From assembly GCA_031285625.1 (NCBI GenBank), contig JAITVV010000081.1, positions 64,001 through 128,000 of the forward strand: a stretch of 64,000 bases of DNA, written 5' to 3'. Both the position numbers and the translations under genes were made by a program. The DNA comes from Prevotella sp. Its GTDB lineage: Bacteria > Bacteroidota > Bacteroidia > Bacteroidales > Dysgonomonadaceae. Shown here one piece after another: positions 1 to 16,768 of this stretch (positions within the stretch are counted from its first letter, which is position 1; each line of letters begins with the position of its first letter). The notes beneath the pieces were generated by a model that was not told the DNA's origin, made no database searches, and saw only the letters and a list, made by a program, of their open reading frames with translations.

Positions 1-2
1 TT

Positions 3-329
3 ATCTTAACCACAGATCATGGAACAATCCGTGTAAAGAACCCTCTAAAAGTAATCGGAGATAAAGCGGTGAATTCAAACATCCGCTATAAAGTAGGTCG
101 CAATCTTGATTATGACCGTAAAAAAGTTTATGATGTGCATTCACCCGATAAATTCGGGCTTCCGGTTCCACACATCAGTACAAAATATATCTTTGCAACA
201 GGTGATGATTTCTTTGCTTACCCTAACAATTACAACTATTATGTATCTTACTATACAGATACTTTCCAACATGGTGGTATCTCTATGGAAGAAATGATTG
301 TTCCTTTTATAACTTTAACAGGAAAGTAA
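3..329 (+). CDS. porX: PorX-type response regulator/PglZ (alkaline phosphatase-like) protein, 3' part (5' truncated by window edge)
   Basis: Frame is open from position 3 ([14 protein letters not shown]...). TDHG and [11 protein letters not shown] are PglZ-type motifs; porX-tsaE adjacency is typical of Bacteroidota. Confidence 0.85.
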
Positions 330-358
330 ATATCTTTGTACTATTAATAACGAATACA

Positions 359-775
359 ATGAATATAAAAATAGAATCATTAGATAAGATACACGAAGCA
401 GCCATAGAGTTTATAAAAGTCATGGGAGACAATACCGTTTTTGCCTTTCATGGCGAGATGGGTGCCGGTAAAACTACCTTTATAAAAGCCATCTGTGAAA
501 AGCTGGGAGTTTCCGATACTATTAATAGTCCTACATTTGCTATCATAAATGAATATCGTTCAGATAGCGGGGAGCTGATTTATCATTTTGATTTCTACCG
601 TATCAATAAAATAGAAGAAGCTTTCGATTTCGGATATGAAGATTATTTCTATAGTGGAAGCCTTTGCTTTATTGAATGGCCTGAAAAGGTTGAAAGTTTA
701 TTACCAAATGATACAGTGAATGTTAGCATCAAAGTACTTGAAGATGGTAGCCGGGATGTAAAGTTGGATATTTAA
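359..775 (+). CDS. tsaE: tRNA threonylcarbamoyladenosine biosynthesis ATPase TsaE
   Basis: GEMGAGKTT Walker [19 protein letters not shown] and IEWPE motifs. Confidence 0.95.
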
Positions 776-833
776 TATTTTTTTAATTATATTTGCATAC
801 TCAATATCCTGAATTAAATTCATCATAAAGAGG

Positions 834-2531
834 ATGCAATATACATTTTTTGATTTTTTACTGTTCTTAGGCTCTATGGGCCTCTTCCTGTATGGGATGA
901 AAGTCATGAGCGAGGGGCTCCAGAAATTAGCAGGTGACAAGCTGAGAAGTATACTCACCGCAATGACCAAGAATCGCTTTACCGGAGTTTTAACCGGAGT
1001 ACTAATTACCGCCATTATTCAGTCGTCGAGCGCAACCACCGTTATGGTTGTTAGTTTTGTAAATGCAGGTTTACTTACTCTATATCAGTCTATTGGAGTT
1101 ATATTGGGGGCTAATATCGGAACAACACTCACTGCATGGATTATCTCCTTCTTTGGTTTCAAAGTCGATATTGCATTATTTACATTACCCATTCTGGCTT
1201 TAGCCACACCACTTATATTTTCAAAGAAAAGCACTCGCAAATCTTTAGGTGAATTCATCTTCGGGTTTGCTTTTCTGTTTATGGGGCTTACCAGCCTGAA
1301 AGCAAATGTACCGGACCTCGCGCAGAATCCGGAGATGCTAAGCTTCGTGACTAATTACACCGATATGGGATTTGCTTCCATTGTCTTATTCTTCTTTATT
1401 GGAGCAATATTGACTGTTGTCGTGCAATCATCCAGTGCTACAATGGCTATTACCCTTATTATGTGCGCACAGGGATGGATATCTTATGAGATAGGTGCTG
1501 CATTAGTATTAGGTGAAAATTTGGGAACTACCTGTACTGCAAACATAGCTGCTCTTGCAGGGAACGTATCGGCTAGGCGTGCAGCTTTATCCCACTTTAT
1601 GTTCAATATGTTTGGGGTCATATGGGTATTAGCTATCTTCCATCCTTTCACAACAGGTGTATCCAATCTGGTTGAACACCTGGCTTCGGGGAATGAACAG
1701 ACAATGATCTCATTTAAATTATCAGCATTCCACACTTGCTATAATATATGTAACACCTTCATATTTATATGGCTTATCAAATTCCTGGAAAAAGTTGTTA
1801 CAAAACTACTGCCCCAAAAAGAGGAGGAAGAAGAATTCAGGCTTCAATATATACAAACCGGTCTGGTTTCACTCTCAGAATTATCAATTGTTGAAGCCCG
1901 TCAGGAGATAGGATTATACTCATCCCGTATGCAAAAAATGTTCGGGTTTGTTAAAGAACTTCTGTATGAAGAAAATGAGGCTGCCTTTGAGAAGCTATTT
2001 AACCGTATAGAAAAATATGAGAATATAAGCGATAGTATGGAACTGGAAATCGCTAACTATCTGAATAAGGCTTCGGAAGGAAGATTAAGCTCGGAAGGAA
2101 AGATGGAAATAAGGCTTATGCTGAGGGAAGTAAGCGAAATAGAAAGTATAGGCGACTCCTGCTATAATATGGCAAAGGCTATCAAGCGTAAAAGGAATGC
2201 AAATGCAGAGTTTACTGAATCTCAGTATGAGCATATACAAGAAATGTTTGACCTGTTGACAATGTCTTTTGAGTATATGCAAAAGGTAGTTGAAAAACAA
2301 GAGAACAAAAATAAGAATATCATTCAGGTACTCAATCTGGAGAATGAAATCAACAATCTACGTAACAACCTTAAAACCAAAAATTTATTAGATATAGATA
2401 AGAAAGAATACCCTTACGAAATAGGCGTATTCTATATTGATATTATAGGCGACTGTGAAAAACTCGGCGACTTTATCGTAAATGTCGTTGAAGCTGAATC
2501 TTCTGAATATAAGGAAAGAAAGGGGATTTAA
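834..2531 (+). CDS. Na/Pi cotransporter family protein with PhoU-like C-terminus
   Basis: Two QSSSAT repeats, GANIGTT/GENLGTT motifs, helical C-terminal domain. Confidence 0.92.
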   Translation: MQYTFFDFLLFLGSMGLFLYGMKVMSEGLQKLAGDKLRSILTAMTKNRFTGVLTGVLITAIIQSSSATTVMVVSFVNAGLLTLYQSIGVILGANIGTTLTAWIISFFGFKVDIALFTLPILALATPLIFSKKSTRKSLGEFIFGFAFLFMGLTSLKANVPDLAQNPEMLSFVTNYTDMGFASIVLFFFIGAILTVVVQSSSATMAITLIMCAQGWISYEIGAALVLGENLGTTCTANIAALAGNVSARRAALSHFMFNMFGVIWVLAIFHPFTTGVSNLVEHLASGNEQTMISFKLSAFHTCYNICNTFIFIWLIKFLEKVVTKLLPQKEEEEEFRLQYIQTGLVSLSELSIVEARQEIGLYSSRMQKMFGFVKELLYEENEAAFEKLFNRIEKYENISDSMELEIANYLNKASEGRLSSEGKMEIRLMLREVSEIESIGDSCYNMAKAIKRKRNANAEFTESQYEHIQEMFDLLTMSFEYMQKVVEKQENKNKNIIQVLNLENEINNLRNNLKTKNLLDIDKKEYPYEIGVFYIDIIGDCEKLGDFIVNVVEAESSEYKERKGI

Positions 2532-2536
2532 ATACA

Positions 2537-5140
2537 TCAAAATTTAAAACTAACCGTACCCAAAACATTTATTGGTCTTAATTTATAATTATAATTGTAA
2601 GTATCAAGTGAATTATAAATAGTATAGCTATATTCTTTTTTATTGAATATGTTATTTATATATAATTCATATTCTATTTCTTTATTTTTATATTTGACGC
2701 CGATATTAGCAAATATTAGATTACATGAAAGGCTTTTGGTTATTTCATTGTATAAATATTCCAATTGAGTATCTAGTTCTATCTTACTGTTAAGGAAATA
2801 GTGGCCAGTTAATTTCTGAGATATTTGATAAGTAGATAACTTAGAACTCGAAGATATATCTATTTGTAATCTATTATTCAATATTTCGGCCTGATATGAT
2901 GCTGAGAACTCATCACATATCTTAGTATTAATCTTAGGTATCAAACTCCAAGAAGTAGATTTTAGCGGAACTAACAAACCTTGTTGCATTTTTTCTGATT
3001 TTATAAAGTTGAGATTTGCCAGTAGAGAGAAACCAGTCTTTATATCACCAAAATACTTACCTATATATCCTCTCCACATCCACATTTCATAACGATTCTT
3101 ATGCTCCGAATTACTGATAATACTTTGTTTATTCAAAAAATATTGCTCATCCAATAGATTTCTTCTGAAAGAGGTATAAGCAATAGAAGTATTAAAAAAC
3201 ATTGTTGTTAATGGATTCCTAAAATTGACTCTGATATTTACAGACTGGCTTTCTCGTTTCTGCAATATTCCAGCTTTTACATTCACAGTACGATAATCAC
3301 TGATGATGTATGAATCTGCGAAATCGGTTATATCTCCTATATTATGATTATAACGATATAGAAATGAAGTTTCCCATAACTGATTTATTTTATATGTTAG
3401 CTTTACTTTAGAATCGAGATACAAGAAATCTTCAGATTTGGTTCTATTGTTCATTTTGTCCTGAGACTCCAACCAATGATAAGTAATAGGTACATTAATT
3501 GAAAACTCTATTTTTTTCTTCTTGAAAGAATAGGATGGGTTAATTATTATTTTAAAATAGTTAGCTCTTATTTTGCTAGATGTACTATCTGTTAGTATTG
3601 GATGATTTGATAAATCAGAATTTAGGTTTTCAATATATCCTTCCATATTCAAGTTAAGATATAATCGTGAATTCCCTTTTGAAAATGAAAAGTTACTATT
3701 ATTATTTGTGTATAGCCCATTTTGATTAGTCTTTTGAATCATATCCTCTTTAAGAGTATCAATATCTACTCTCAGATTCTGAGGAAGTGATGTATAACGA
3801 ACGAATGAGGAAATATCCCATATCCGATTATTCCATTTCTTAACATATTGAAAATCATTGGATACTAAATATTCAGGAGTATTAAATTTTTGCATTATTC
3901 TATTTGCATTTTCGATATTCAAACTAGCCTCATTCAATTTTGCTTGCCCTTTCAATATATTACTTATATAGTGCCGGGAAGTATTATCTGTATATGTAAT
4001 AGTTCCATCGATATAATTATTTTTCTTATATGCATTTCTTTGTTCATCAATCTGCAAAGAGTTCTCTGGTAAAAAGTATGAACTATTCTGATAGATTGAT
4101 TCATCCAAAGCGTCATGCAGATAATTTATATTTAGGCGTAATTGACTGTCTTCTCCTGTTTTCCATAGACTATTTAGTGTCGCAATATGGGTTTTATTGA
4201 AAAGATATCGATTTTCTTCTATTGGTGGATTATTTAATACATTATCTGTCAATAGGCCAGAAATTGTTTTATGTTTACTTAAATCCTCTGAGAATAATGA
4301 ATGTTCGGTAAGTTCGGTTGCTATATTGTTCCCTGTATTATTTGTTTTATACATTGCGATAGCTTGATGTTTTCTGTTGGCTTGTAGTGCAAAAGCATCA
4401 ATGTTCCATAGCAAATCTTTTATTCCTCCAATTCCAACTTTTGCAGTGCCTACAGGTCGAGCCATTTTACTATCTTGTAATTTGAGATTAATAGCTGCCT
4501 GACCTGTACTCATCAAATCTTTTAAAGCCTTTACCGGTTGATGATTTTCTATTACTTCCACATTTGTAACTGCATCCACAGGCACATTATTTGTTGCTAT
4601 ACCATATTTTTTATCTAATAAATCCATTCCCTCTATATAGAATTTATTAATTGGCTCACCATTGTATTTTATACCGCCATTCTGTGAAACCTCTATCCCT
4701 GGTAACTTTTTTAATATATCTCCTATTGTACGATCCTGCTGAGAACGAAATGCACCGACACTGTATACAAGAGTGTCTTCTCTACTCCACATCACCTCTG
4801 ATTTAATTACAACCTCCTTTAATTGGATTTCTAATGGCTGTAATGCTACATCTATTACCTGGGAGTTGTTCCTTATTGTAAATACTTTTTGTTTGTATCC
4901 CAGAAAGGATACGGTCAATTCCAATTCTTTATTCTGTGAATCTATTTCTATTTGATAAAAGCCTTTACTATCTGTCAATCCGTAACCTATAATGTCTTGA
5001 TCATTATCGATAATAGAGACAACAACACCATTGATTGGTTTATTATCAATGGTGTCTCTTACAACTCCATGTATTGCTGTTTGGGCTGACAAAAAGAATG
5101 GAGATAAGACTAGAGCTATATATAGTAAATACTTACTCAC
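2537..5140 (-). CDS. Outer-membrane beta-barrel (carboxypeptidase-regulatory-like N-domain plus TonB-plug-like domain), GLPGLI-associated type
   Basis: Signal peptide; DTLVYSV..F...DRTIGDILKKLPGIEV..G.IKYNG..INKFYIEG plug-like segment; C-terminal Phe (VSFKF). Confidence 0.8.
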   Translation of the reverse strand: MSKYLLYIALVLSPFFLSAQTAIHGVVRDTIDNKPINGVVVSIIDNDQDIIGYGLTDSKGFYQIEIDSQNKELELTVSFLGYKQKVFTIRNNSQVIDVALQPLEIQLKEVVIKSEVMWSREDTLVYSVGAFRSQQDRTIGDILKKLPGIEVSQNGGIKYNGEPINKFYIEGMDLLDKKYGIATNNVPVDAVTNVEVIENHQPVKALKDLMSTGQAAINLKLQDSKMARPVGTAKVGIGGIKDLLWNIDAFALQANRKHQAIAMYKTNNTGNNIATELTEHSLFSEDLSKHKTISGLLTDNVLNNPPIEENRYLFNKTHIATLNSLWKTGEDSQLRLNINYLHDALDESIYQNSSYFLPENSLQIDEQRNAYKKNNYIDGTITYTDNTSRHYISNILKGQAKLNEASLNIENANRIMQKFNTPEYLVSNDFQYVKKWNNRIWDISSFVRYTSLPQNLRVDIDTLKEDMIQKTNQNGLYTNNNSNFSFSKGNSRLYLNLNMEGYIENLNSDLSNHPILTDSTSSKIRANYFKIIINPSYSFKKKKIEFSINVPITYHWLESQDKMNNRTKSEDFLYLDSKVKLTYKINQLWETSFLYRYNHNIGDITDFADSYIISDYRTVNVKAGILQKRESQSVNIRVNFRNPLTTMFFNTSIAYTSFRRNLLDEQYFLNKQSIISNSEHKNRYEMWMWRGYIGKYFGDIKTGFSLLANLNFIKSEKMQQGLLVPLKSTSWSLIPKINTKICDEFSASYQAEILNNRLQIDISSSSKLSTYQISQKLTGHYFLNSKIELDTQLEYLYNEITKSLSCNLIFANIGVKYKNKEIEYELYINNIFNKKEYSYTIYNSLDTYNYNYKLRPINVLGTVSFKF

Positions 5141-5984
5141 TTAACTCTATTGGATTATATGCACGCTTACGCAATGCATGAGCAGGTATATCACCTTGTA
5201 TCATTCCCGAATTTTGTAATGCTGCTCCAGGATTTTCTCTGTATTGTTTATATGATTTCAGGAAAGTTTTTTTATTTGTTTTCATATAATTCCTGTCAAA
5301 TATATATATATTATCTACCCAACGAGGTTTTTCGATCGCAATACATTCAAATGATATTTGTTTTTTATCATCTTCCACCTTTAATATTAGTCCCGGTAGT
5401 CCTGAAAATTTCCAAGGACCATTACTTATAGGAATATCCGGAGTATACCATGCAGTATATTTTCTACCGAAAAGCGTTGTTGATGCTTTTTTACATTTAT
5501 ATCCACTAACAGTTAGATTTCCTGATTCAGATTTCCAATTAGTCTTTATTAATGGTTCTTCATATAAAAAAGAAGACCCTGTAAAGAAATTAGTTGATGT
5601 AATCTTTCCTTTAGGATAATTTGTGAAAATATTTTCCCTCGAACCATTTCTTGTATATATAGAAACTTTTTCCAACATAGAATTTATATCCATACCCTGT
5701 TTGCTGTACACAAAATTTAAAGAATCACCTATTAATTTATTATAATCAGTATATTTTGAGACTCTATTTCCAATCTGAAGCAACATAAGATGTTCTTGAT
5801 AGTTTTGTGTTATTGTATCATTTATAATTCGTTGTCGATATTGTATCCTTATAATAGAACTGTCTAATACAATAGGAGTTTTAGGAATTGAAGCTTTGGT
5901 ATTTTGTCTTTTATCAGGTATAAATATCTGAGCGTTCAAGGTTAATGTTATAAATAAAATGAAGTATAAAATAAAATGTTTCAT
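5133..5984 (-). CDS. GLPGLI family protein
   Basis: Signal peptide; AWYTPDIPISNGPWKFSGLPGLIL motif; YNPIELSE end. Confidence 0.92.
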   Translation of the reverse strand: MKHFILYFILFITLTLNAQIFIPDKRQNTKASIPKTPIVLDSSIIRIQYRQRIINDTITQNYQEHLMLLQIGNRVSKYTDYNKLIGDSLNFVYSKQGMDINSMLEKVSIYTRNGSRENIFTNYPKGKITSTNFFTGSSFLYEEPLIKTNWKSESGNLTVSGYKCKKASTTLFGRKYTAWYTPDIPISNGPWKFSGLPGLILKVEDDKKQISFECIAIEKPRWVDNIYIFDRNYMKTNKKTFLKSYKQYRENPGAALQNSGMIQGDIPAHALRKRAYNPIELSE

Positions 5985-6838
5985 TACTCACTTAACTCTA
6001 TCGGGTTATATGCTCGTTTACGAAATGCTTTAGCAGGTATATCGCCCTGTATCATCCCTGAATTTTGTATTACTGCACCCGGATTATCCTTGTATTGTTT
6101 ATATAATTTAAGAAAAGTCTTCTTATTTGTTTTCATATAATCACTTTCATTCATATATATTGGGTCTTTCCAATGCGGTTTATCTATAGCTATACATTCA
6201 AAAGAAACTTCTTTTTTACTATCTTCTACCTTTAGTATTAACCCAGGTAAGCCTGAGAATTTCCATGGACCGTTGCTTATGGGTATATCTGGAGTATACC
6301 AAGCTGTATATTTTCTACCAAAAAGTGTAGTGGACGCTTTCTTGCATTTATATCCGGCTATAGTCATATTTCCGGATTCCAGTTTCCAATCAATATTTAC
6401 TGATGCCTCTTCATATAGGTATGAAGAGCCTCCAAATAAATTGGTTGATGTGATTTTTCCTTGAGGATAATCTTTAAATATATTTTCTCGAGAGCTTCCC
6501 TTTATATAGGGATGTATCTTAGTAAATATAGTACTCAAATCATCTCCCATTTTGACATACACATCATAAAGGGAATCTGCTTTTAATCCATAGTAATCTG
6601 TATATTTTGATATATTGTTTCCTATCTGAAGTAGCATTATATTATCTGTTTTCTGATTTGTATCAGTTGTATCCTGAATAATTACTTGACGGTATTGTAT
6701 TCTCATTTTAGATGTATCTTGGATGCTTTTCTTTTGTAGCTTCAAGGGTTCTGCAGTACGAGGGTCAACTGTAATTGTTTGAGCATGTAAAAAATTGCAT
6801 GCGAATATAATAAGACAACTTAAAAAAACTTTTTTCAT
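5984..6838 (-). CDS. GLPGLI family protein (tandem paralog)
   Basis: Same GPWKFSGLPGLIL motif; its stop overlaps the next start (TAATG). Confidence 0.92.
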   Translation of the reverse strand: MKKVFLSCLIIFACNFLHAQTITVDPRTAEPLKLQKKSIQDTSKMRIQYRQVIIQDTTDTNQKTDNIMLLQIGNNISKYTDYYGLKADSLYDVYVKMGDDLSTIFTKIHPYIKGSSRENIFKDYPQGKITSTNLFGGSSYLYEEASVNIDWKLESGNMTIAGYKCKKASTTLFGRKYTAWYTPDIPISNGPWKFSGLPGLILKVEDSKKEVSFECIAIDKPHWKDPIYMNESDYMKTNKKTFLKLYKQYKDNPGAVIQNSGMIQGDIPAKAFRKRAYNPIELSE

Positions 6839-6935
6839 AAGATATATTTAACTGATATTAAATAGGTTGTCAATAAATAATTTGAATATTTGGCACATCA
6901 TTTATTATATTGACAACCTCCAAATTTTTGTTTTA

Positions 6936-7112
6936 CTAACAGAAGAAACTATAGATTTCATCTACCCATTGAAGAGTCTCCAACTCTCCAGCTCCAGAAC
7001 AATAATAAGTAGCAGGTGCACCTCCAGGACAATACAAAGTTCCGCAAACTGGAGATGCAGTATTAACAATAAGTACAATTCCGACAATAATAAGGGCTAA
7101 TTTCTTCTTCAT
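6936..7112 (-). CDS. Small secreted Cys-rich peptide, 58 aa (not in ORF track)
   Basis: Hand translation: MKKKLALIIVGIVLIVNTASPVCGTLYCPGGAPATYYCSGAGELETLQWVDEIYSFFC*. Basic-hydrophobic signal peptide, 4 Cys, same strand as and directly upstream of the GLPGLI genes. Confidence 0.75.
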   Translation of the reverse strand: MKKKLALIIVGIVLIVNTASPVCGTLYCPGGAPATYYCSGAGELETLQWVDEIYSFFC

Positions 7113-7312
7113 AATTTAAAATTTGAGTTAAACATACACTGCAAATTTCAAAAAATAAAAAGACTAAGAGAGTATAGTATTGCTCCCATATGACTTTTTT
7201 CAGAAGTCTGATCTGGATAACCTGCTTATCATCAAATTGTTAATTGATCCGTCATATAAGAAATATATAACTTTTTAATTGTCTGAAATACAATTAGTTG
7301 TGAATATTCATA

Positions 7313-10051
7313 TTAGAAATCTTCACCTTCATAGTCCTCATTATTCTTTCCCTTACTCTTTATAATGTTGAATTTGTAAGAGAAGCTAAGCATAAAGTAT
7401 CGGCTAACACTGTTGGAGCGCGAATCGGTCATGTAATTACCACTTACATAGCGTGATATATTATTCCTATCATTGAGGATATCAAAGAATTGTAACTTCA
7501 GGGTACCTTTTTTCTTTTTCAGAAATAGTTTTGAGATTGAGGCATTCCAGAGAATCTCGCTTTTCTTAAAATCATCCCCATACCCGCTATAATAAGACAT
7601 ATTTATATCATTTTGTATTGATATGTCTAAGGGGATATCAAATATGGAAGGTATTTTCCATAGGAAAGAATGGAGAACAGTATAGTTTGCTGTATTCCTA
7701 TCCTGAGAGCCGGATAGGTTATTTCGTGTGATATTGAATGAAGCACCCAGTTGCAGGCGTGTTTCAAATTTATCAACTTTGAATTTACCGGCAACCCTCT
7801 CTCCTATCACCACATTATGAGTTATAGCCTTCTCCCCATTCGTATAGCCTATGTTTTTATAATAATTACTATATGTACTATTATCTATCGTAAATTTTTT
7901 ATTACGCAACGGAGTATTAAACATAAAGTTGAGGTTTGCCCCCATATTACCGCTTAGGTTGCGATAGGTATTTATGCTATTACCCTGATCGTCAATTGTC
8001 GTATAATCAACAATATTATTGAACGTATAATTCAGCCCTCCGGACAACATAAGAAAGCGGCTGGTTTCGTAATTCGACTTACGGTAATATACATTGAAGT
8101 TATTGCTGTAGCTTGGCTTCAAATCAGGGTTACCATAGTACTTAGTGAGTGCATTTACAATAACCGTATCGGCTGACAACTGTGTTATTCCAGGCTGACT
8201 TGTCGACCCAGAGTAGCTGATATCCAAACTGGTTTGCTCATTGGGCTGATAAGTAAAATTAAGGCTGGGTGAAAAATTAATCACATTTTGCTTTGTATTC
8301 AGGCTATCGATGGATGTATCGCCTATACTTACCTCGCTTTTTGAATATGAAGGATCAATACTGAGGCCTATAGTATAATTATATTTGTCTTTTGTTGTCT
8401 GAAAATTGAGACTAATGTTCTGGTTTATATATTTATTTTTGGTATTCCTTGCATATGCTGAATCCAAAACCGTATAGTTACCTGCATCATCTTTTGTACG
8501 GACATCACGCATCCGCTTTGAGTTATTCTGTCCATATGAATATGAAAACTGTAGTCTGTGATCTTTACCAATAGGTTCCACATATGACATCGAGATATTA
8601 TAGCTATTGGTTTTATTGTCCGTCTCATTTCGTTGGTCAATGATCTTATCGGGTGTTCCTTCTGTATAGGTTGTATATGAATAGCTGGTTCCTTTGCTAT
8701 TGTCTTTTCGTATCGAATTATTAAAAGTCAGACTAACTGTCCTCCCTTTGTCATTTAGTTTACGCCCTATTGTAAAGAAATTATTGATACTATAACCATC
8801 CCCTTTCGACTGACTATTTGAATACCCTGAAGTTGTATCTTTTTCGGCAACATATGAAATATTAGAAGAGTTCTTCTTATTCATTGTGTTATTAAAGCTA
8901 ATATATGACCGTGCATAGATTGTGGTCAGAGTATCAGGTTTCCATTGCAGGTTCATACCCGCATTATAGTTATCCCGTTTATTCCTCGATGAAGATTCCT
9001 GTTTGGAAAAACGATCACCGGACGAAAGAAAAGTCTGGGTATTAGTTTTTGTCTCCATCAAGTTATCATTACTTGAGTACCTCAGATTTCCCCCGATTCT
9101 GAATTTTTCGGATGACTGTATATAAGCATTGGCTCCAACATTTTTGTTTTTATCAATCCCGTTATCCATCCCCATACTATAGCCATTGTCATTTACATTA
9201 TTCATATCCGCCACAAAAGACATCTGATTATCATTACGCATATAGTTAACCAATGCCTTGTTTGCATACTTGTCGTCACTTCCATATCCGGCCTTTACAT
9301 CGCCAAAGATGCTTTGTCTGAGTTCTTCTTTTACAACAAGGTTCAGTACCTGATCAGGGTCTTTATCTTTAAATCCGGTTACTTTGGCTGTTTCTGATTC
9401 TTCTTTATACAATTGCAGTTTTTTGATCATATTAGCTGGTAAGTTTGCCAATGCCATAGGAATATCATTCCCGAAAAACTCTTTTCCGTCTACCAGTATT
9501 TTTTTTATGGTTTTCCCATTCGCTGTAATATTCCCGTTTTCGTCTACCTCTACACCCGGAATATTTTTCATCATATCCTGTAGCATATCACTCTCCTGTG
9601 AACTATAAGATCCGGCATTGTATTCTATCGTATCTCCTTTGACCACAATATCAGGGACCTGTGCCTCCACCACAGCCTCTTTTAGCTCAACAATATCCTC
9701 ATCAAGATATATATCGCCAAAAGAATAACCCGGTTCTTTTGATGATATTTCAAAATTTTGCAGAAATGCTTTATAGCCTATAAAAGATGCTTCTAGAATA
9801 TATTTACCTGTATTTGCCGAAAGCTTGAATTTGCCTTTCTCATCTGTTGCCACTCCTTTTATATAAGCGCTATCAGACTGATTTAATAATTTTACAGTTA
9901 CAAAAGGGATAGATTCCTTCGTTTTAGAATCGTATACAGTTCCTTGTATATCCTTTCTTATTTGCTGTGCCTGGGCATACATGGCAAATGAAAAAAAGAA
10001 TAATAAAGTAATCTGCAGGTATCTCATTCCTATCGAAAAATATTTTGGCAT
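7313..10051 (-). CDS. Outer-membrane beta-barrel family protein (TonB-dependent receptor-like); start possibly 10027
   Basis: Signal peptide, carboxypeptidase-regulatory-like domain, VKGDTIEYNA..KNIPGVEVD..ILVDGKEFFG plug-like motif, C-terminal RYFMLSFSYKF. Confidence 0.85.
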   Translation of the reverse strand: MPKYFSIGMRYLQITLLFFFSFAMYAQAQQIRKDIQGTVYDSKTKESIPFVTVKLLNQSDSAYIKGVATDEKGKFKLSANTGKYILEASFIGYKAFLQNFEISSKEPGYSFGDIYLDEDIVELKEAVVEAQVPDIVVKGDTIEYNAGSYSSQESDMLQDMMKNIPGVEVDENGNITANGKTIKKILVDGKEFFGNDIPMALANLPANMIKKLQLYKEESETAKVTGFKDKDPDQVLNLVVKEELRQSIFGDVKAGYGSDDKYANKALVNYMRNDNQMSFVADMNNVNDNGYSMGMDNGIDKNKNVGANAYIQSSEKFRIGGNLRYSSNDNLMETKTNTQTFLSSGDRFSKQESSSRNKRDNYNAGMNLQWKPDTLTTIYARSYISFNNTMNKKNSSNISYVAEKDTTSGYSNSQSKGDGYSINNFFTIGRKLNDKGRTVSLTFNNSIRKDNSKGTSYSYTTYTEGTPDKIIDQRNETDNKTNSYNISMSYVEPIGKDHRLQFSYSYGQNNSKRMRDVRTKDDAGNYTVLDSAYARNTKNKYINQNISLNFQTTKDKYNYTIGLSIDPSYSKSEVSIGDTSIDSLNTKQNVINFSPSLNFTYQPNEQTSLDISYSGSTSQPGITQLSADTVIVNALTKYYGNPDLKPSYSNNFNVYYRKSNYETSRFLMLSGGLNYTFNNIVDYTTIDDQGNSINTYRNLSGNMGANLNFMFNTPLRNKKFTIDNSTYSNYYKNIGYTNGEKAITHNVVIGERVAGKFKVDKFETRLQLGASFNITRNNLSGSQDRNTANYTVLHSFLWKIPSIFDIPLDISIQNDINMSYYSGYGDDFKKSEILWNASISKLFLKKKKGTLKLQFFDILNDRNNISRYVSGNYMTDSRSNSVSRYFMLSFSYKFNIIKSKGKNNEDYEGEDF

Positions 10052-10104
10052 ATAAAGTAAACGCTTTTTTAATTATAAGAGGATAATTATGCCCTAATTT
10101 CATA

Positions 10105-10152
10105 AAAAGTAACAAAAGTAACAGTTTTCAGATATAAACACCTGTCACTTTC
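10105..10152. repeat. Dispersed DR-DR-spacer-IR element, copy 1
   Basis: AAAAGTAACAAAAGTAACA-N19-TGTCACTTTC. Confidence 0.75.
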
Positions 10153-10777
10153 GATACCGGTAACCGGGAGGGACCATCTGATCGGTAACACTTTTAATCG
10201 TAACATACCTGGATTTCTTCTCGGGTTGTGGTTCAATAACCGGGACTTCTGATAATGGTTTTGATTCATCAATTATCTCTCTCTTTTCTTTCGGTATCTG
10301 CGTACTCAATGTCTGCTGCAACAGATTCAGGTAATCTACCGATTTGGGATCGTTAACGGTTATCATCAGTGCCGGATGCGAACTTTCTTTAGCACGCTCA
10401 TGCCTATTGTTATCTCCAGCCAGTAACAGCTTTATCGCATGTGTATCAGGGGCGTATTCTTTTTGTCTTACTACTTGTGACTTTAGTGCCAGTTTTTCAG
10501 GATTATCCTTATCAGGCACATAAGTCGTACGGGTCTCAGTGAGAGTATAGCCTTCCAGTTTTCTCTTCAGTGACTTACGGGCTATCAGCAACAATTTATC
10601 ATCGCGACGATCTGTTGCCTTTTCTATGGCTTTCTCAAATTCAGGCTTGGTATCCTTCCATTCATAAAATGTTTTACGACTTAGTTTTAGTATACTACAT
10701 ATTTCAGAAATACTATAGGTATCTTCTTCGATAAGAGACACAATTTTCTCGACTAATTTTTCGGTGTATTTTGACAT
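10145..10777 (-). CDS. Phage terminase-small-subunit-like (phBC6A51-type) helix-turn-helix protein, orphan
   Basis: N-terminal HTH (SISEICSILKLSRKTFYEWK...PEF), SLKRKLEGY and PDTHAI motifs resemble that family; no other phage genes nearby. Confidence 0.65.
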   Translation of the reverse strand: MSKYTEKLVEKIVSLIEEDTYSISEICSILKLSRKTFYEWKDTKPEFEKAIEKATDRRDDKLLLIARKSLKRKLEGYTLTETRTTYVPDKDNPEKLALKSQVVRQKEYAPDTHAIKLLLAGDNNRHERAKESSHPALMITVNDPKSVDYLNLLQQTLSTQIPKEKREIIDESKPLSEVPVIEPQPEKKSRYVTIKSVTDQMVPPGYRYRK

Positions 10778-10865
10778 ATCTGTTATAAGTTAGAGGTTAA
10801 TAATCTCACTTATAATAGATAAATATTGTAGGAAATTATGCTATATCAAATAGTGATTTACATAA

Positions 10866-12686
10866 TCACCTGCGGAACAGGTGTTTAAATTGATGGGAAT
10901 ATAATTTGGATAGCCCCTGCCTGTTGTCAATGGCATCCCCTACAACAATCATTGTTGTCAGCGTCAGCTTATTCTCCTTTATTATTTTTGCCAGATCCTG
11001 TAATTGCCCTCTGTAAATACGTTCATCTTTCCATGTCAGTTTATAACATGCCGCAATTGGTGTAGTTGGCGGATAATGTTCCAATAATTCTTTTTGAACA
11101 TTCTCAACTACTGTGGCACTAAGAAAAATACATATGGTACTCTGTGAGCGAGCGAGTAAATGAAGTTTCTCTTTATCAGGCATTGGCGTACGACCTTCTC
11201 CTCTTGTCAGGATGATCGTCTGTACTTTCTCAGGTATCGTAAATTGTGACCTGAGAGCAGCTGCAGCGGCCTGAAAAGATGATATACCCGGGGTGATGTG
11301 GTAAGACATATTGTATTCATCGAAGAAAGCCATTTGTTCCTGTATAGCACCATAGATGCACGGATCGCCTGTGTGTAAGCGTACAACAAGTGCACCTCTG
11401 TCATAGAACTCTTTCATCAGAGTAAATTGTTCCTCCAGGTCCATTGATGCGGAACTACGGACTACAGCTCCCTCTTTGGCACAATATGTAAGTTCTATAG
11501 GAACAAGGCTTCCGGCATATAGAATGAGATCGGCCTCTTCAAGAAACTGACGGCCTTTGACAGAGACGAGGTCAGGGTCACCGGGGCCTGCACCTACTAT
11601 TTCGATATGTCCCTGACGAATGGCTGACCGATTGAGAGCAATAGCAAAAGTGAAGTCATTTCCTTTACTTAATACACCTTTTTGTTTCTCCATGATCAAC
11701 TGTCCATAGTCTGCACTCTTGATTGCTGTGGATTCGGATACTCCCTGTACCGAGGTTACTTTTTCCACCTTTTCAGAAGGGTTAGGCACTTCAATATCTT
11801 TCAGTTCATCGGCAGAATAGATATTTACAGGTATATCGTTCAGATACTGTTGAAGGTCTCTTAGTAAGGCTTCATCCTTCTTAATATCGATGGAGGATAT
11901 ATCGGCTATGGAATGTATGGAGATGGAGTTATTTGTTATAGCTTCTGATATGTATTTAGCAATATCTTCCGGATTACAATCTTTCCGACAGCCTATACCC
12001 AGATGCAGAACCTTCGGATGATAACAGATTGTTTGTATTTCTGTTTCAGGATACAGAAAAGGAGTAACAGCAATAAGCAAGTCATACTTATCCTGTCTGA
12101 TGTCTGTATATCTGTAATATATATCTACATGGTCAGGCTTTGTCCTTTCCATATAGGCAGTTCCTTCATCTTTGATATCGAGAAGTAAGGCAACAGGCTT
12201 TTTATTCACAAACGTAGTCAGAGGAGAATTGAAGTTCTCTGCATTAGTATTTGTTGTCCATTCATATTGCTTACCTAAAGTGTCCAATGCCCACAAGCCT
12301 GTGTTGTCACTCTGAGTCGTGATAATAGCGTTTCCTCCGATGATATGGGCTATCTGACTTGTCAGGTCGTTGGCCCCTCCTACATGTCCTGAAAGTACGG
12401 ATATTACATTCTTACCTGTACTATCGATATTGATTACGGCAGGGTCTGTATGTTTATCTTTTATATAAGGTGCAATGCTCCGTACACAAATACCCATTGC
12501 TCCGATGAAAACGATAGATTCTACTTCCGAAAAGAGCTCAGCTACACAATTGCTAATGGAGTCTATATGCTCTGTTCCATCGATCTTATTCTTACTGTAT
12601 ATCTTTGATCCGGTTAATTCTTTGCTTATTGTTTCAGCTAAAGGATAGCTGCTTTCAGATGTGAGGATTATCGCTGTCTTTATCAT
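10866..12686 (-). CDS. cobM: CbiG-CobM(CbiF) fusion: cobalt-precorrin-5A hydrolase plus precorrin-4 C11-methyltransferase
   Basis: KHTDPAV/LSGHVGGAN/LGIGCRK (CbiG) followed by VGAGPGDPDL, RLHTGDP and TPGISS (CobM). Confidence 0.92.
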   Translation of the reverse strand: MIKTAIILTSESSYPLAETISKELTGSKIYSKNKIDGTEHIDSISNCVAELFSEVESIVFIGAMGICVRSIAPYIKDKHTDPAVINIDSTGKNVISVLSGHVGGANDLTSQIAHIIGGNAIITTQSDNTGLWALDTLGKQYEWTTNTNAENFNSPLTTFVNKKPVALLLDIKDEGTAYMERTKPDHVDIYYRYTDIRQDKYDLLIAVTPFLYPETEIQTICYHPKVLHLGIGCRKDCNPEDIAKYISEAITNNSISIHSIADISSIDIKKDEALLRDLQQYLNDIPVNIYSADELKDIEVPNPSEKVEKVTSVQGVSESTAIKSADYGQLIMEKQKGVLSKGNDFTFAIALNRSAIRQGHIEIVGAGPGDPDLVSVKGRQFLEEADLILYAGSLVPIELTYCAKEGAVVRSSASMDLEEQFTLMKEFYDRGALVVRLHTGDPCIYGAIQEQMAFFDEYNMSYHITPGISSFQAAAAALRSQFTIPEKVQTIILTRGEGRTPMPDKEKLHLLARSQSTICIFLSATVVENVQKELLEHYPPTTPIAACYKLTWKDERIYRGQLQDLAKIIKENKLTLTTMIVVGDAIDNRQGLSKLYSHQFKHLFRR

Positions 12687-12687
12687 C

Positions 12688-13878
12688 TTATTTTTTCTTT
12701 ATTGCTTTCATAACTTCAATGGTATTGAAGTCGTCAATTGTGATACAAATGCTTTGCTCTAATGTCAGATTATTATCGTTTAGTGCTTCCAGAAACATAT
12801 TCCGGCTTTCGTCAGAAACGGAATTGAATACGATGCTTCCATTTTCGTTCAATATGTTAGCTACAGTGGAAACAATCTCTTTCATCTTTCCTCCATGCCC
12901 TCCTATAAAGACAGCATCAGGTTTTGGTAGATGTGAAATATCTGTTTCAGTAAAATCAGCTATAATAGCTGTGATTCCCGGTGTGCCGAATTTTTGTGCA
13001 TTCAGTTCCATTAGCTCTTTCCCTTCGTTACGCTGCTCAAATGCAAAGATTTGCAGATGAGGAAATTGAAGTTTAGCCTCTATTGATACAGATCCTGTGC
13101 AAAAACCTATATCCCAAAATACTGCTTTATCTCGGAGTTCGAGCATGCTTAAAGAAAGTAGTCGTATAGGCATCTTGGTAATCATCTTTGCACGCCCATT
13201 AAGTAAATAGAATTCATTTTCAGGAATGCCAAAAGAACGGGGACGATCAGATATCTTTTCTAAAATAAGATTGTTGGGGAAGGCAAAACTTTTGCCTATT
13301 ACGTCTTCCAGTTTATAAGTGGAGAATTTTTCCTGCTCCTTATTTCCTAACAATTCACCGACTGATATACGGTAGTTGTTATATCCGTATTTGAGCATGC
13401 GGGATGCAATAGCAGACGGGGTATGTTCTTTGTTATCTGTCAGTACTCCGATCTTATTATATCCCATTATCAGCGCTTCATCGAACTTATGCCAGGACCT
13501 GCCTGTTAACGATACAATATGCATATCATGATATGGCATGATCAGACGATGTGCAAGCAATTGCAATGAATTGAAGTACGGGTATAGTATTATATCAACG
13601 TCAGGTATCATCCTCTTTACTGTGTTGGCAAAGCCAAAGAATAAGGGATCGCCCGAAGCAAAGACAACGATTGTATTATGCTTCTTATATTCCTCAAAGA
13701 CATTCTCTAAAGGAACGGCAATATCGATCCATATACTCTTTTCAGGTAAAAAAGATTCCACGATCTGATGATGGCGGTTTCCTCCTGAAAAAATGCGATG
13801 AGAACGGATGATATCTAATATTTCTTCCGCGAAATGTTGTTCCTGATCATCGTCGATACCTATTATATAGAATTTCAT
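12688..13878 (-). CDS. cbiE: Bifunctional precorrin-6Y C5,15-methyltransferase (decarboxylating) CbiE/CbiT
   Basis: ASGDPLFFG, ITKMPIRLLSL, WDIGFCTGSVSIE and DAVFIGG motifs. Confidence 0.92.
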   Translation of the reverse strand: MKFYIIGIDDDQEQHFAEEILDIIRSHRIFSGGNRHHQIVESFLPEKSIWIDIAVPLENVFEEYKKHNTIVVFASGDPLFFGFANTVKRMIPDVDIILYPYFNSLQLLAHRLIMPYHDMHIVSLTGRSWHKFDEALIMGYNKIGVLTDNKEHTPSAIASRMLKYGYNNYRISVGELLGNKEQEKFSTYKLEDVIGKSFAFPNNLILEKISDRPRSFGIPENEFYLLNGRAKMITKMPIRLLSLSMLELRDKAVFWDIGFCTGSVSIEAKLQFPHLQIFAFEQRNEGKELMELNAQKFGTPGITAIIADFTETDISHLPKPDAVFIGGHGGKMKEIVSTVANILNENGSIVFNSVSDESRNMFLEALNDNNLTLEQSICITIDDFNTIEVMKAIKKK

Positions 13879-13880
13879 GA

Positions 13881-15287
13881 TTATACGTCTCTACCGGGTT
13901 TCAATTGTTCTGCATCGTCAAAAGTAAGAATAGAGTTGACCAATGTTGCAGCCAGATTACTTCCTCCCTTGCGCCCTTCTACAATTAGTTTAGGTATATC
14001 CTTGAATGGCTTGGTCATATGTTTGGACTCCCTTACATTTACAAAACCTACAGGAGCAGCAACAATACCTGCCGGATGAGCTTTGTCTTTTCTCACTAAT
14101 TCACACAATTCCATCAGTGCAGTAGGTGCATTACCGAAAACATACAATGCATCGGGATGTTCTTCTACTGCTAAGCGAATACCGGCTTGTGTGCGGGTTA
14201 TTCCTTTTTCTTTTGCGATAGTAGCAACGCGTTCATCATGCAGATAACATTTTACGTCAATGCCTAAGCGATCCAAAGCTCCTTTACGAATACCTGACGC
14301 AGCCATTGTTACATCTGTTATAATTGTTTTCACCTTTCCTTGTATAAACTCATTATGCAGGTTTTCCACAGCATTTTCGTCTACAAGCAGGATATTTTCC
14401 ATATCGAAATCGGCAGTAGTATGTATGGCATGAAGCAATGCCCATTTCTTGCCTAAAGAAATATTCTTATTCTTGAGTTCACCCTCTATAGTGCGGAAAC
14501 TACGGATCATAATATCCTGACCAATACCAATTTCTTCACTTTTAGATTCACGATAGTATCCGCGTGGGGTAATAATATTGTTGTTAGAAATATATGATTG
14601 GGAATTTCCTATAATGATAATCGTGAACATATCTATTTCTTCAGGATCGAATTCAGCAAGGGTAGTAACCTTTATTTCCTGTTCCTCACGTCCTGCCTGA
14701 CGTACATAACCAATAGGCGTTTCGGGAGATCGTTCTTTCAGAAAAAGCTCGATCAATCGGTATAATTGCCAATAACGTCCTTTGCTTTTTGGATTGTAGA
14801 TAGCAGTTACAAAATCGGCAGAAACTGCTGCCGATATTCGCTTTTCTATTCTGTCCCAAGGTGTCATTAGGTCTGAAAGGGAAATGATGCAGAAATCGTG
14901 TCCGATGGGTGCACCAAGCAATGCTGCCGCTTTCTGGAATGCGCTTATGCCGGGTAGTACTTCCACTTCTATTCTGCTTTTCCTCTCATCCCTCATTTCG
15001 TAGACAAGCGGAGCCATTCCATAAATGCCGGAATCGCCGGAACTAATGACACAAACAGTCTTGCCTTTTTCTGCATGAAGAAAAGCCTCTTCTGCACGTT
15101 CACGCTCTTTTTTCATGCCTGTATCGATACAGATTGTATCAGAATTGATTATATTCTCTACAAACTGAAAATAGTACTTATAACCGACTATAACCTGCGA
15201 TATTTTCATTGCATCTATCACAGCCGGTGTAATATCTTCCTTTGATCCGGGGCCTATTCCGGCAACTATTATTTTCCCTTTTGTCAT
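13881..15287 (-). CDS. cobJ: CobJ(CbiH)-CobH(CbiC) fusion: precorrin-3B C17-methyltransferase plus precorrin-8X methylmutase
   Basis: GIGPG, SSGDSGIYGMA, SLSDLMTPW and TPRGY, then HTTADF, GNAPTAL, PVGFV and GRKGGS. Confidence 0.93.
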   Translation of the reverse strand: MTKGKIIVAGIGPGSKEDITPAVIDAMKISQVIVGYKYYFQFVENIINSDTICIDTGMKKERERAEEAFLHAEKGKTVCVISSGDSGIYGMAPLVYEMRDERKSRIEVEVLPGISAFQKAAALLGAPIGHDFCIISLSDLMTPWDRIEKRISAAVSADFVTAIYNPKSKGRYWQLYRLIELFLKERSPETPIGYVRQAGREEQEIKVTTLAEFDPEEIDMFTIIIIGNSQSYISNNNIITPRGYYRESKSEEIGIGQDIMIRSFRTIEGELKNKNISLGKKWALLHAIHTTADFDMENILLVDENAVENLHNEFIQGKVKTIITDVTMAASGIRKGALDRLGIDVKCYLHDERVATIAKEKGITRTQAGIRLAVEEHPDALYVFGNAPTALMELCELVRKDKAHPAGIVAAPVGFVNVRESKHMTKPFKDIPKLIVEGRKGGSNLAATLVNSILTFDDAEQLKPGRDV

Positions 15288-15292
15288 GTATG

Positions 15293-16768
15293 TTAGTTGT
15301 GTTTATTAGAACAAATATACTTCTTTAATTTCTTAACTTTCCGTTTCAGATATCCAAACCCTAGCCAAACTCCTGATACGGATACAATTGTTCCACCAAT
15401 CATGGTTGTCCACATAATAATATTCCAAAGAATTTTATTTTCTGCCGTAAGTTTAAACTTGAAACTATGTAATGCCTGATAAGACCAACGCCTTACTTTG
15501 GTATTCGTATTAAAATAGCGCGTATTCCCGTTTTTAGGATTGATATAATAGGTGCTGCCATCTGCATCATCTATTTCAGCTTTATATACAGGTAATGGTA
15601 AATGATCGGACAGGCCTACATAGTAGTTGTCATACTCCGTCATTAATGAAAGTGTAACCGGCTCGGAATGAACTAATGCCAACCTTTCTTTTATATCCTG
15701 TTCGTTTAGTGACAGATCCTTAATTTCTTCAGAAGAGGCATCAATAGTTATTAACCGATTATTTATGACAGCCTTATAGATGGGTTTATTTCCAAATGAT
15801 GTCCATTCTATGCTTTTTACCTCATCAGGGTATTTATCAAATATTCTATGATAGTCCAATATGTAATTTTGGAGCTTGATAGGTTCTTGCGCATACAATT
15901 TTTTCTCTATGTCAGAATTATGCACTTTAACTATCCATTGAGGAACAGGAGCCAATGACATCATTCCGCTGAATACAAATGTAAAAACAAATATGCCGAA
16001 TATAAATCCTAATATATGATGCCATTTATAGATAATCTTTTTATATGGAGTCTTCAGCTTCTTTCTCCGGCGATATTGTACAATATAGGAACGTACGCCA
16101 AGGATAATGCCAGCAAGGCACATTAGTGAACCAATGCCTGAAAGCCATACTACCACGTCTATCCATAGTTGGGAATTTTGCCGGAGTGAGGTAAAATACA
16201 CCCAGTGGGGTATTGCTCCCAGCCATGCCCAGAAACGATTGTTTTCATCGGTAAATTGCAAAGCCTCACCTGTACGTGATGATATATAGAGTTGATGTTT
16301 GTCTTTATCTCCAAAATAGAATTTATAGATAGGAAACTCTTTTTTCAAACGCCCAAAAGGTATCCATTGATCCAATTCACGTAATGTATCTACCTGTACT
16401 ATTTCAGCGTCATTCCATCGTTGTGCATATTCCTTTATCTGTTCATATGTAGAGGATCGTACATTCTGCATGGACAAGTCTGCAAAAATCCGGCTGTTAT
16501 TCCCTGAGGACGAAACAACGAAGAAAGGCTTATTTGCATAAGACTGTAATGCTAATTTAGTTATTGTACTATCCGATTTCTTTATGATTGAATCAATAGG
16601 TAGAATATCCCCCTGCAACACATCCATATTTTTATATGTGTCGCGATTGCTTACTTTCGGAAAAGTATGATATATCATTACAAAACCTGAAAGGAACCAG
16701 ATCAGGAACAGGATACTGAGAATTGTACCCAGTATCCTGTGAAAAGAATAGAATATCTTTGTTAGCAT
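15293..16768 (-). CDS. PepSY-associated TM-helix membrane protein
   Basis: HRILG, IPHWVYF, WHHILG and LHSF His-containing TM segments. Confidence 0.85.
   Translation of the reverse strand: MLTKIFYSFHRILGTILSILFLIWFLSGFVMIYHTFPKVSNRDTYKNMDVLQGDILPIDSIIKKSDSTITKLALQSYANKPFFVVSSSGNNSRIFADLSMQNVRSSTYEQIKEYAQRWNDAEIVQVDTLRELDQWIPFGRLKKEFPIYKFYFGDKDKHQLYISSRTGEALQFTDENNRFWAWLGAIPHWVYFTSLRQNSQLWIDVVVWLSGIGSLMCLAGIILGVRSYIVQYRRRKKLKTPYKKIIYKWHHILGFIFGIFVFTFVFSGMMSLAPVPQWIVKVHNSDIEKKLYAQEPIKLQNYILDYHRIFDKYPDEVKSIEWTSFGNKPIYKAVINNRLITIDASSEEIKDLSLNEQDIKERLALVHSEPVTLSLMTEYDNYYVGLSDHLPLPVYKAEIDDADGSTYYINPKNGNTRYFNTNTKVRRWSYQALHSFKFKLTAENKILWNIIMWTTMIGGTIVSVSGVWLGFGYLKRKVKKLKKYICSNKHN

Follow-up and report, generated by a model that had tools for sequence, protein, structure and literature searches.

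The window, meaning the whole stretch of 64,000 nucleotides that was analyzed, carries a short minus-strand reading frame at the head of a compact operon. The locus raises the question of whether this frame encodes a secreted cysteine peptide and, if so, what the adjoining proteins do with it. The frame of 58 codons is open throughout (6936..7112, − strand) and is followed by a predicted mRNA stem-loop (6864..6919, − strand) that lies between it and the gene for GLPGLI-1 (5984..6838, − strand), a soluble periplasmic protein of 284 aa with a signal ending AQ. GLPGLI-2 (5133..5984, − strand; 283 aa) is a tandem paralogue of GLPGLI-1, and the last gene (2537..5140, − strand; 867 aa, GTG start) encodes an outer-membrane barrel. 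The peptide gene is separated from GLPGLI-1 by 97 bp; the two GLPGLI genes overlap by 1 bp, and GLPGLI-2 overlaps the barrel gene by 8 bp. The coordinates bear out the overlapping start and stop codons described in an earlier reading made from the DNA letters (the sequence-only reading). All genes of the 4.6 kb cassette are co-oriented.

The GC content of the cassette is 30.6% versus 37.0% for the genome. A close version of the Na/Pi transporter gene was found in 2 of the 34 same-genus genomes searched, with other genes adjoining it in both. The low GC content and these different neighbours indicate that the cassette is an accessory unit. No regulator genes were seen adjoining the window cassette, and promoter scans gave matches at chance level (41 vs 45.5 expected, and 73 vs 71.7 in a second scan). 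The genome holds a second GLPGLI-barrel pair (G000:C23:82353-85909) of a type common in the genus, with a barrel identity of 32–34%. An upstream peptide was not found for this pair, which is possibly an orphan listener or a shared exporter.

The encoded peptide has a Lys-rich start followed by a hydrophobic stretch, and its cysteines are at positions 23, 28, 38, and 58 (C-x4-C-x9-C-x19-C), the last being the C-terminal residue. Residues 1–19 likely constitute a Sec signal with cleavage after Ala19, leaving a mature part of 39 aa (~4 kDa) that is acidic with a net charge of −4. The start codon has an A at −3. The open frame, signal, and Cys spacing are thus as the sequence-only reading had them. 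The antisense frame that it called spurious does exist (6867-7100), but a comparable antisense frame lies over only 5 of 30 family genes, in agreement with its dismissal.

When the peptide was used alone as the query, no relative was detected in 60 related genomes (best E 0.035), and only the peptide itself was returned from a 5.8-billion set. It matched zero families in Pfam and NCBIfam. The best PDB match (E 0.036) covers the signal region only, and the best Atlas matches (0.79) are unnamed Bacteroidota clusters. The mature peptide was compared with 9037 small ORFs from the fetched loci, and the highest score, 67, went to the peptide that holds the same slot in a Tannerella sp. cassette (L056), relative to 49 for the next match and 20 ± 4 for shuffles (p = 0.0002). 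All four cysteines are kept, and the pair gives dN 0.58/dS 1.35. A broad-family profile from which the window peptide was left out scores 15.9 bits for the whole peptide and −0.6 bits, not above shuffles, for the mature part. On these alignments the window peptide is a divergent member of the family, its mature part linked through L056 only. The leave-out profile and the spacing of 30 place C28 and C58 at the positions of the family Cys pair, with C23 and C38 as an extra pair; one alignment had set C23 on a family position, and this was dropped for C28 on the same two grounds. The small Cys-rich gene is a real gene, and the same-slot homologue in L056 supplies conservation in relatives, the lack of which the sequence-only reading had named among its grounds for refutation.

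The loci examined were collected via the barrel and comprise 16 same-genus regions, 80 genome loci, and 80 metagenome loci. Among the closest barrels (39–55% identity), a signal-bearing small Cys ORF is present upstream of GLPGLI in 8 of the 10 testable loci (L041, L056, L057, L136, L137, L139, L140, and L162) and was not found in L040 and L155; L138 was left out, the locus being cut. The sequence-only reading had proposed such a scan upstream of GLPGLI-barrel loci, with the expectation of small secreted ORFs there, and these are found in linkage with GLPGLI and the barrel across Bacteroidota. A 10-peptide profile at E ≤ 0.03 recovered 18 held-out ORFs (near-duplicates included) among 14,270, of which 17 lie directly before GLPGLI and one is a frameshifted copy before the barrel. 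All 30 family matches in the collected loci have GLPGLI within 550 bp downstream. Genome-wide profile searches of 301, 401, and 401 genomes (overlapping sets, not selected for GLPGLI, with 16–21 candidates scored per genome) provided 9 new full-length small-ORF matches in 7 genomes. Each of the nine precedes GLPGLI, and three come from outside the order. Nine further matches that covered just the signal and lay within long ORFs (L219, L224, L226, L228, L229, L231, L233, L234, and L236) were left out of these counts.

A 23-row profile detects at least 262 clusters at 50% identity. Among the 150 family members listed, 110 have two cysteines, with a spacing of mostly 29–30, and the mature parts have a median charge of −5, with 96% negative. 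No Pfam or NCBIfam family is common to more than one of 23 members tested, and no bacteriocin family was matched. Peptide pairs are under purifying selection (dN 0.19/dS 1.42 and dN 0.47/dS 1.83), the exception being one paralogue pair in L222 with dN ~ dS. Judged by sequence, these acidic, signal-bearing, two-Cys peptides upstream of GLPGLI are a family uncatalogued in Pfam and NCBIfam, to which the window peptide belongs. The claim that a secreted four-Cys peptide heads the cassette holds for a small Cys peptide conserved in the slot, whereas four cysteines are confined to a small clade. The peptide and GLPGLI genes are duplicated as a tandem unit in L162, L142, and L057. A decayed duplication is visible at L057:4094-5941, where an intact peptide gene and GLPGLI are followed, before the barrel, by a frameshifted peptide copy and a GLPGLI 3′ remnant.

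The Sec-type family peptide is present in 15 of 67 non-redundant GLPGLI-barrel cassettes and was not found in 52. No peptide was detected in 15 of the 16 same-genus cassettes fetched, and a metagenome scan using GLPGLI-1 alone found none. Before 13 further lead GLPGLI genes the slot is filled by double-glycine (GG)-leader Cys peptides, some of which are TIGR04149 RiPP precursors. One peptide type or the other stands before 34 of the 111 lead GLPGLI genes, compared with 2 among 387 genes of other kinds, a comparison in which the Sec profile was partly trained on the same loci and kin are not independent; neither type precedes the remaining 77. The GG-leader cores have no significant score against the Sec-family mature profile (best E 0.07), so the two types are different families with a common slot. 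The description of a “dedicated system” is borne out as to the conserved slot and its linkage to GLPGLI and the barrel, but is too narrow, since the same module also follows GG-leader peptides and often has no identified peptide. Further GG-leader peptides with acidic two-Cys cores, below all Pfam and NCBIfam cut-offs, occur at L099:293-463, L176:2887-3069, L139:11061-11222, L197:98-289, and L127:4868-5071. Other small Sec-signal proteins of a different, beta-rich type are located directly before GLPGLI or directly after the barrel (L095:4889-5101, L117:3933-4256, L106:8579-8782, and L133:8582-8782).

Chosen subsets of 73, 36, and 26 neighbouring proteins were scanned. C39 ABC exporters, HlyD adaptors, C39-VKOR proteins, radical-SAM maturases, two-component systems, and DUF3244 were identified, and no TolC-family (OEP) match was found in the subsets of 73 and 36. 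In L161, L145, and L183 the barrel gene lies inside a peptide-maturation operon with a C39-VKOR protein, and in L161 and L145 the genes that follow encode a C39 ABC exporter together with a short adaptor. The L145 adaptor aligns only to residues 12–63 and 302–426 of full HlyD. The middle part of HlyD docks TolC, and the L145 adaptor, aligning to both HlyD ends only, is therefore without the TolC-docking part. Full-length HlyD adaptors of 430 aa are found in four GG-peptide clusters (L060, L096, L116, and L127). Divergent HK/RR pairs occur at L075, L212, L215, L071, L105, and L139, and long TPR-like proteins with DUF3244 lie upstream of several peptide cassettes. GLPGLI copies are in surplus in L142 and L162 (four GLPGLI and two peptides each) and in L163 (four GLPGLI and no family peptide). 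The operons at L161:1155-10315, L145, L183, and L168 combine DUF3244, a GG-leader two-Cys acidic peptide, GLPGLI copies, a C39-VKOR(-thioredoxin) fusion, the barrel, a C39 ABC exporter, and an adaptor of 162–180 aa without the central region.

GLPGLI-1 and GLPGLI-2 score 198.5 and 186.3 bits against TIGR01200 (cut-off 50). They are 65% identical overall, with 40–59% identity over residues 20–150 and 72–92% after residue 150. Because the window copies differ mainly in residues 20–150, the N-terminal half may be a variable ligand face and the C-terminal half a conserved docking face. The AF2 model of GLPGLI-1 (pLDDT 94.7) is a LolA/RseB-like open antiparallel half-barrel with a helical lid. Its structure matches (Foldseek, VIA) include the N-domain of PNGase F-II (4r4z; Z 15.8, rmsd 3.7, 175 aligned), LolA (2w7q; Z 9.2), and MucB (6jau; Z 7.5, with a second MucB/RseB value of 7.2). 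The periplasmic chaperone or receptor role proposed for GLPGLI from the sequence accords with this predicted carrier-like fold. LolA-type folds carry lipids, and RseB/MucB binds a peptide stretch. GLPGLI shares its fold with LolA/LolB, RseB/MucB, and the N-terminal bowl domain of PNGase F-II but differs from them in sequence (3–16% identity), and it is linked to peptides where LolA/LolB-type carriers are linked to lipoproteins. Cys165 is present in 112 of 112 GLPGLI rows, with a possible partner, Cys215, in 57 of 112; PNGase F-II has Val at the position of Cys165.

Peptide and GLPGLI co-vary weakly (Mantel r 0.16, p 0.049, n = 26; a partial Mantel test on the barrel gave r 0.13, p 0.13, n = 19). 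The duplicates L104/L159/L211 and one L222 copy were left out of this set, in which the boundaries of four mature segments are imperfect. These Mantel tests did not reveal co-evolution beyond that expected from shared descent. DsbA, DsbB, and VKOR were not found in the 94%-complete genome, in which control searches were positive. This accords with the statement, in the accessible text of PMC6671954, that Bacteroides have no general disulfide machinery. One may speculate that a thiol link at GLPGLI Cys165 stands in for a Dsb system.

The barrel protein comprises a SusC-type NTE (~21–104), a TonB-box-like segment (107–113), a putative small plug (~117–225), and the barrel proper (230–866), and its model has a pLDDT of 92.1. 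The sequence contains a CarbopepD_reg_2 domain (PF13715, 44.9 bits), and the NTE matches structure 9hfj (Z 12.0, rmsd 2.1, 80 aligned). A SusC/RagA sequence match extends over profile positions 3–115, covering the NTE and TonB box, with none beyond. Residues 107–113 we take to be the TonB-box motif; E109 and V110 are conserved in 97% and 92% of 87 rows, and 14 TonB_C matches over the cut-off are present in the genome. The Plug profile PF07715 scores 17.7 bits, below its cut-off of 23.9, and the model has a folded domain of ~110 aa. The NTE and the TonB-box-like segment accord with the TonB-type barrel of the sequence-only reading. No match to PF00593 was obtained for the barrel, DUF560 is absent among Pfam hits to E 0.1, and no SusD gene was seen in window positions 2537-10051.

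In the DSSP string of one AlphaFold model, 26 strands occur in strict alternation. All 12 periplasmic turns of the model are 2–4 residues long, and all 26 strands are kept in 87 of 87 aligned relatives. A 22-stranded barrel is the norm for TonB-dependent transporters, and with 26 predicted strands this barrel would be wider. Solved TonB-dependent transporters superpose poorly on the model (TM ~0.35, rmsd 11–22). The top VIA match is MtrB (Z 15.2, rmsd 5.3, 492 aligned), with BtuB at Z 13.6; because these Z values are close together, they support the 26-strand count and do not prove it. MtrB is 26-stranded, like LptD, according to the accessible text of PMC7198977. The barrel is predicted to be a TonB-gated 26-strand channel of unusual width.

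The stem-loop at 6864-6919 has a z of −2.98, with 3 of 200 shuffles equally stable. Hairpins with z < −2 follow 19 of the 27 peptide genes and 7 of the 27 adjacent GLPGLI genes. The hairpin likely raises the peptide mRNA over that of the downstream genes.

The reading favoured here, tentatively and with somewhat less than an even chance of being right, is that the peptide, two GLPGLI proteins, and barrel constitute a TonB-driven two-step export route for folded miniproteins, with GLPGLI as the carrier. By sequence, the peptide bears a signal of Sec type together with the Cys pair conserved throughout its large family. In the periplasm it would adopt a hairpin-plus-helix fold, with C28-C58 and, here, C23-C38 as the closing bonds. 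The predicted GLPGLI cradle would hold the miniprotein and hand it on, possibly via Cys165, and the TonB-gated barrel would release it folded. The hairpin after the peptide gene would ensure excess cargo. The released acidic peptide would most likely be a strain-specific signal and not a membrane-lytic bacteriocin.

Export is favoured because a Sec-delivered peptide needs an exit and a barrel is co-encoded, and because the barrel lies within maturation operons in L161, L145, and L183, two of which have adaptors without the middle region. In addition, the hairpin hints at cargo made in excess, a lumen of the predicted width would accommodate a folded protein of 4 kDa, and the accessible text on Oar-PopC provides a precedent (PMC6434023). 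Against export, the NTE, TonB box, and plug are importer parts, and full-length HlyD (L060, L096, L116, and L127) with a TolC encoded elsewhere could make the barrel unneeded for exit, a route on which the accessible text on ColV bears (PMC10352776). The failure to find DsbA, DsbB, or VKOR in the genome also argues against export. So do the many cassettes without a detected peptide (52/67, 77/111, and 15/16), and the weak peptide-GLPGLI co-variation tells against all binding models. The −0.6 bits of the mature window peptide on the leave-out profile and the dN ~ dS of the L222 pair are further points against, as is a strand count read via a DSSP string from one AlphaFold model. A broader proposal, doubtful at present, is a new Bacteroidota pathway in which peptides delivered by Sec or by C39 ABC exporters form a transient thiol link at GLPGLI Cys165 and leave by a TonB-driven 26-strand barrel of a kind without a solved structure. 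If true, it would serve many RiPP clusters as well as hundreds of peptide families that have no annotation, in Bacteroidota from gut, oral, and environmental habitats.

The main alternative, possible though unlikely, runs in the opposite direction. The peptide would exit via vesicles, lysis, or TolC, and the barrel would import it folded to GLPGLI and on to a two-component or TPR-HTH regulator for quorum or kin sensing, with peptide-less cassettes as listeners. The importer-type NTE, TonB box, and plug are as expected for such a loop, as are the HK/RR pairs and TPR-like/DUF3244 proteins near several peptide cassettes, the RseB/MucB-like fold of GLPGLI, the many orphan cassettes, and the presence of full-length HlyD in four clusters. 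A disulfide toxin of 8.8 kDa, BfUbb, is taken up through SusCD (accessible text of PMC11467351). However, the window cassette has no regulator beside it, the barrel is embedded in maturation and export operons with hairpin-less adaptors, and a peptide secreted by Sec would already encounter its own periplasmic GLPGLI on the way out of the cell.

It is quite unlikely that the peptide is a narrow-spectrum bacteriocin with GLPGLI as a cognate immunity sponge, extra GLPGLI copies as orphan immunity, and the barrel as the exit or entry route. The tandem peptide-GLPGLI units, the surplus GLPGLI copies (L142, L162, and L163), the fast divergence of the peptides, the patchy, low-GC cassette, and the TIGR04149 RiPP precursors as neighbours would all suit this arrangement. 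The acidic mature parts, the absence of any bacteriocin family match, and the weak co-variation do not, and bacteroidetocin loci are without an immunity gene in the accessible text of PMC6671954. It is improbable that the peptide resides in the barrel or in GLPGLI as a subunit and tunes the passage of some other substrate, for example a lipid or cofactor. LolA-type folds do carry lipids, and LptE sits in the LptD lumen. Other 26-strand barrels hold a lumen partner, with MtrA in MtrB as the example in the accessible text of PMC7198977. The model of the barrel, however, already has its own plug, the hairpin points to excess and not 1:1 synthesis, and the peptide is absent from most cassettes, with GG-leader peptides filling the slot in others. 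A chance or dead frame at 6936-7112, for which the lack of a direct homologue in the 60 relatives and the 5.8-billion set could be cited, is very improbable against the same-slot four-Cys homologue, the family-wide linkage, the intact frame, and dN < dS.

One of the closest known systems is Oar-PopC of Myxococcus xanthus, in which secretion occurs via a TonB-dependent transporter; in the accessible text the cargo gathers in the periplasm, and its proposed exit is through a plugged, TonB-energised barrel (PMC6434023). Relative to that account, the cassette differs in its 4-kDa Cys miniprotein cargo encoded in the same operon, its LolA-like periplasmic partner, and its 26-strand model. The predicted order of NTE, TonB box, plug, and barrel, with a match over profile positions 3–115, is that of SusC-type TBDTs, including ButCD, for which the accessible text on BfUbb gives a precedent for a small disulfide protein passing such a transporter (PMC11467351). 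The cassette differs from these in having no SusD lid gene, 26 rather than 22 predicted strands, and, where those have a surface lipoprotein, a periplasmic GLPGLI. Type XI secretion (DUF560/Slam) likewise uses an outer-membrane barrel to release soluble periplasmic proteins (accessible text of PMC8406197); the cassette barrel has no DUF560 match, has predicted plug and TonB-box parts, and is from Bacteroidota and not Proteobacteria.

Bacteroidetocins and the TIGR04149/TIGR04148 GG-leader RiPP clusters also combine small Cys peptides with thiol oxidoreductases (accessible text of PMC6671954 and PMC4573289), and related GLPGLI-barrel modules lie inside GG-leader RiPP clusters. In contrast to bacteroidetocins as described there, the signal of the window peptide is of Sec type, a GG leader is missing, and the mature part is acidic, with no C39 exporter or maturase adjoining; no C39 gene is present in window positions 1-16000. 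The bacteroidetocin route across the outer membrane is left open in the accessible text of PMC6671954. On the predicted model the module falls outside the SusC-type TBDTs (strand number, SusD), type XI secretion, and the class II bacteriocins, and it may work like Oar.

In the searched literature, GLPGLI appears as an entry in tables or result text without a function (accessible parts of PMC9603813, PMC8757827, and PMC13744359). Descriptions of Bacteroidales RiPP clusters do not include the GLPGLI-barrel module in the accessible parts of PMC10352776 and PMC4573289. No account of the module, nor of a TonB-type barrel with 26 strands, was found in that literature, outside of which lie most subscription journals, and supplements (10.1101/494179) may hold the peptide family unnamed. 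The three-part module is real and apparently undescribed in the searched literature. What stands of the original interpretation is slot conservation, linkage to GLPGLI and the barrel, the carrier-like fold, and the TonB parts; “dedicated” and four cysteines as a general feature do not. The cassette gives the GLPGLI family, so far without an explained role, a testable job. With GLPGLI tied to a peptide family of at least 262 clusters, to precursors of GG-leader RiPPs, and to a predicted TonB-gated 26-strand channel, three questions become testable: the role of GLPGLI, the route by which peptides of Bacteroidota traverse the outer membrane, and whether a TonB-type barrel can be widened enough to let folded proteins through.

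Another protein of NTE-plug-barrel type (PF14905, 115.6 bits) is encoded 200 bp upstream of the peptide gene (7313-10051, − strand). It shows weak similarity to the cassette barrel (E 2e-16), which its first barrel strands resemble, and it has a paralogue on C14; PF14905 proteins may, like the cassette barrel, be wider than 22 strands. Its candidacy as a fourth cassette part was set aside for its genome-like GC content of 36.1%, the C14 paralogue, and the other genes found at that position in relatives. Between this PF14905 gene and a cobalamin-synthesis-like operon sits a stand-alone gene for an HTH protein that resembles the small subunit of a phage terminase (10145-10777, − strand; PF07141, 27.9 bits).
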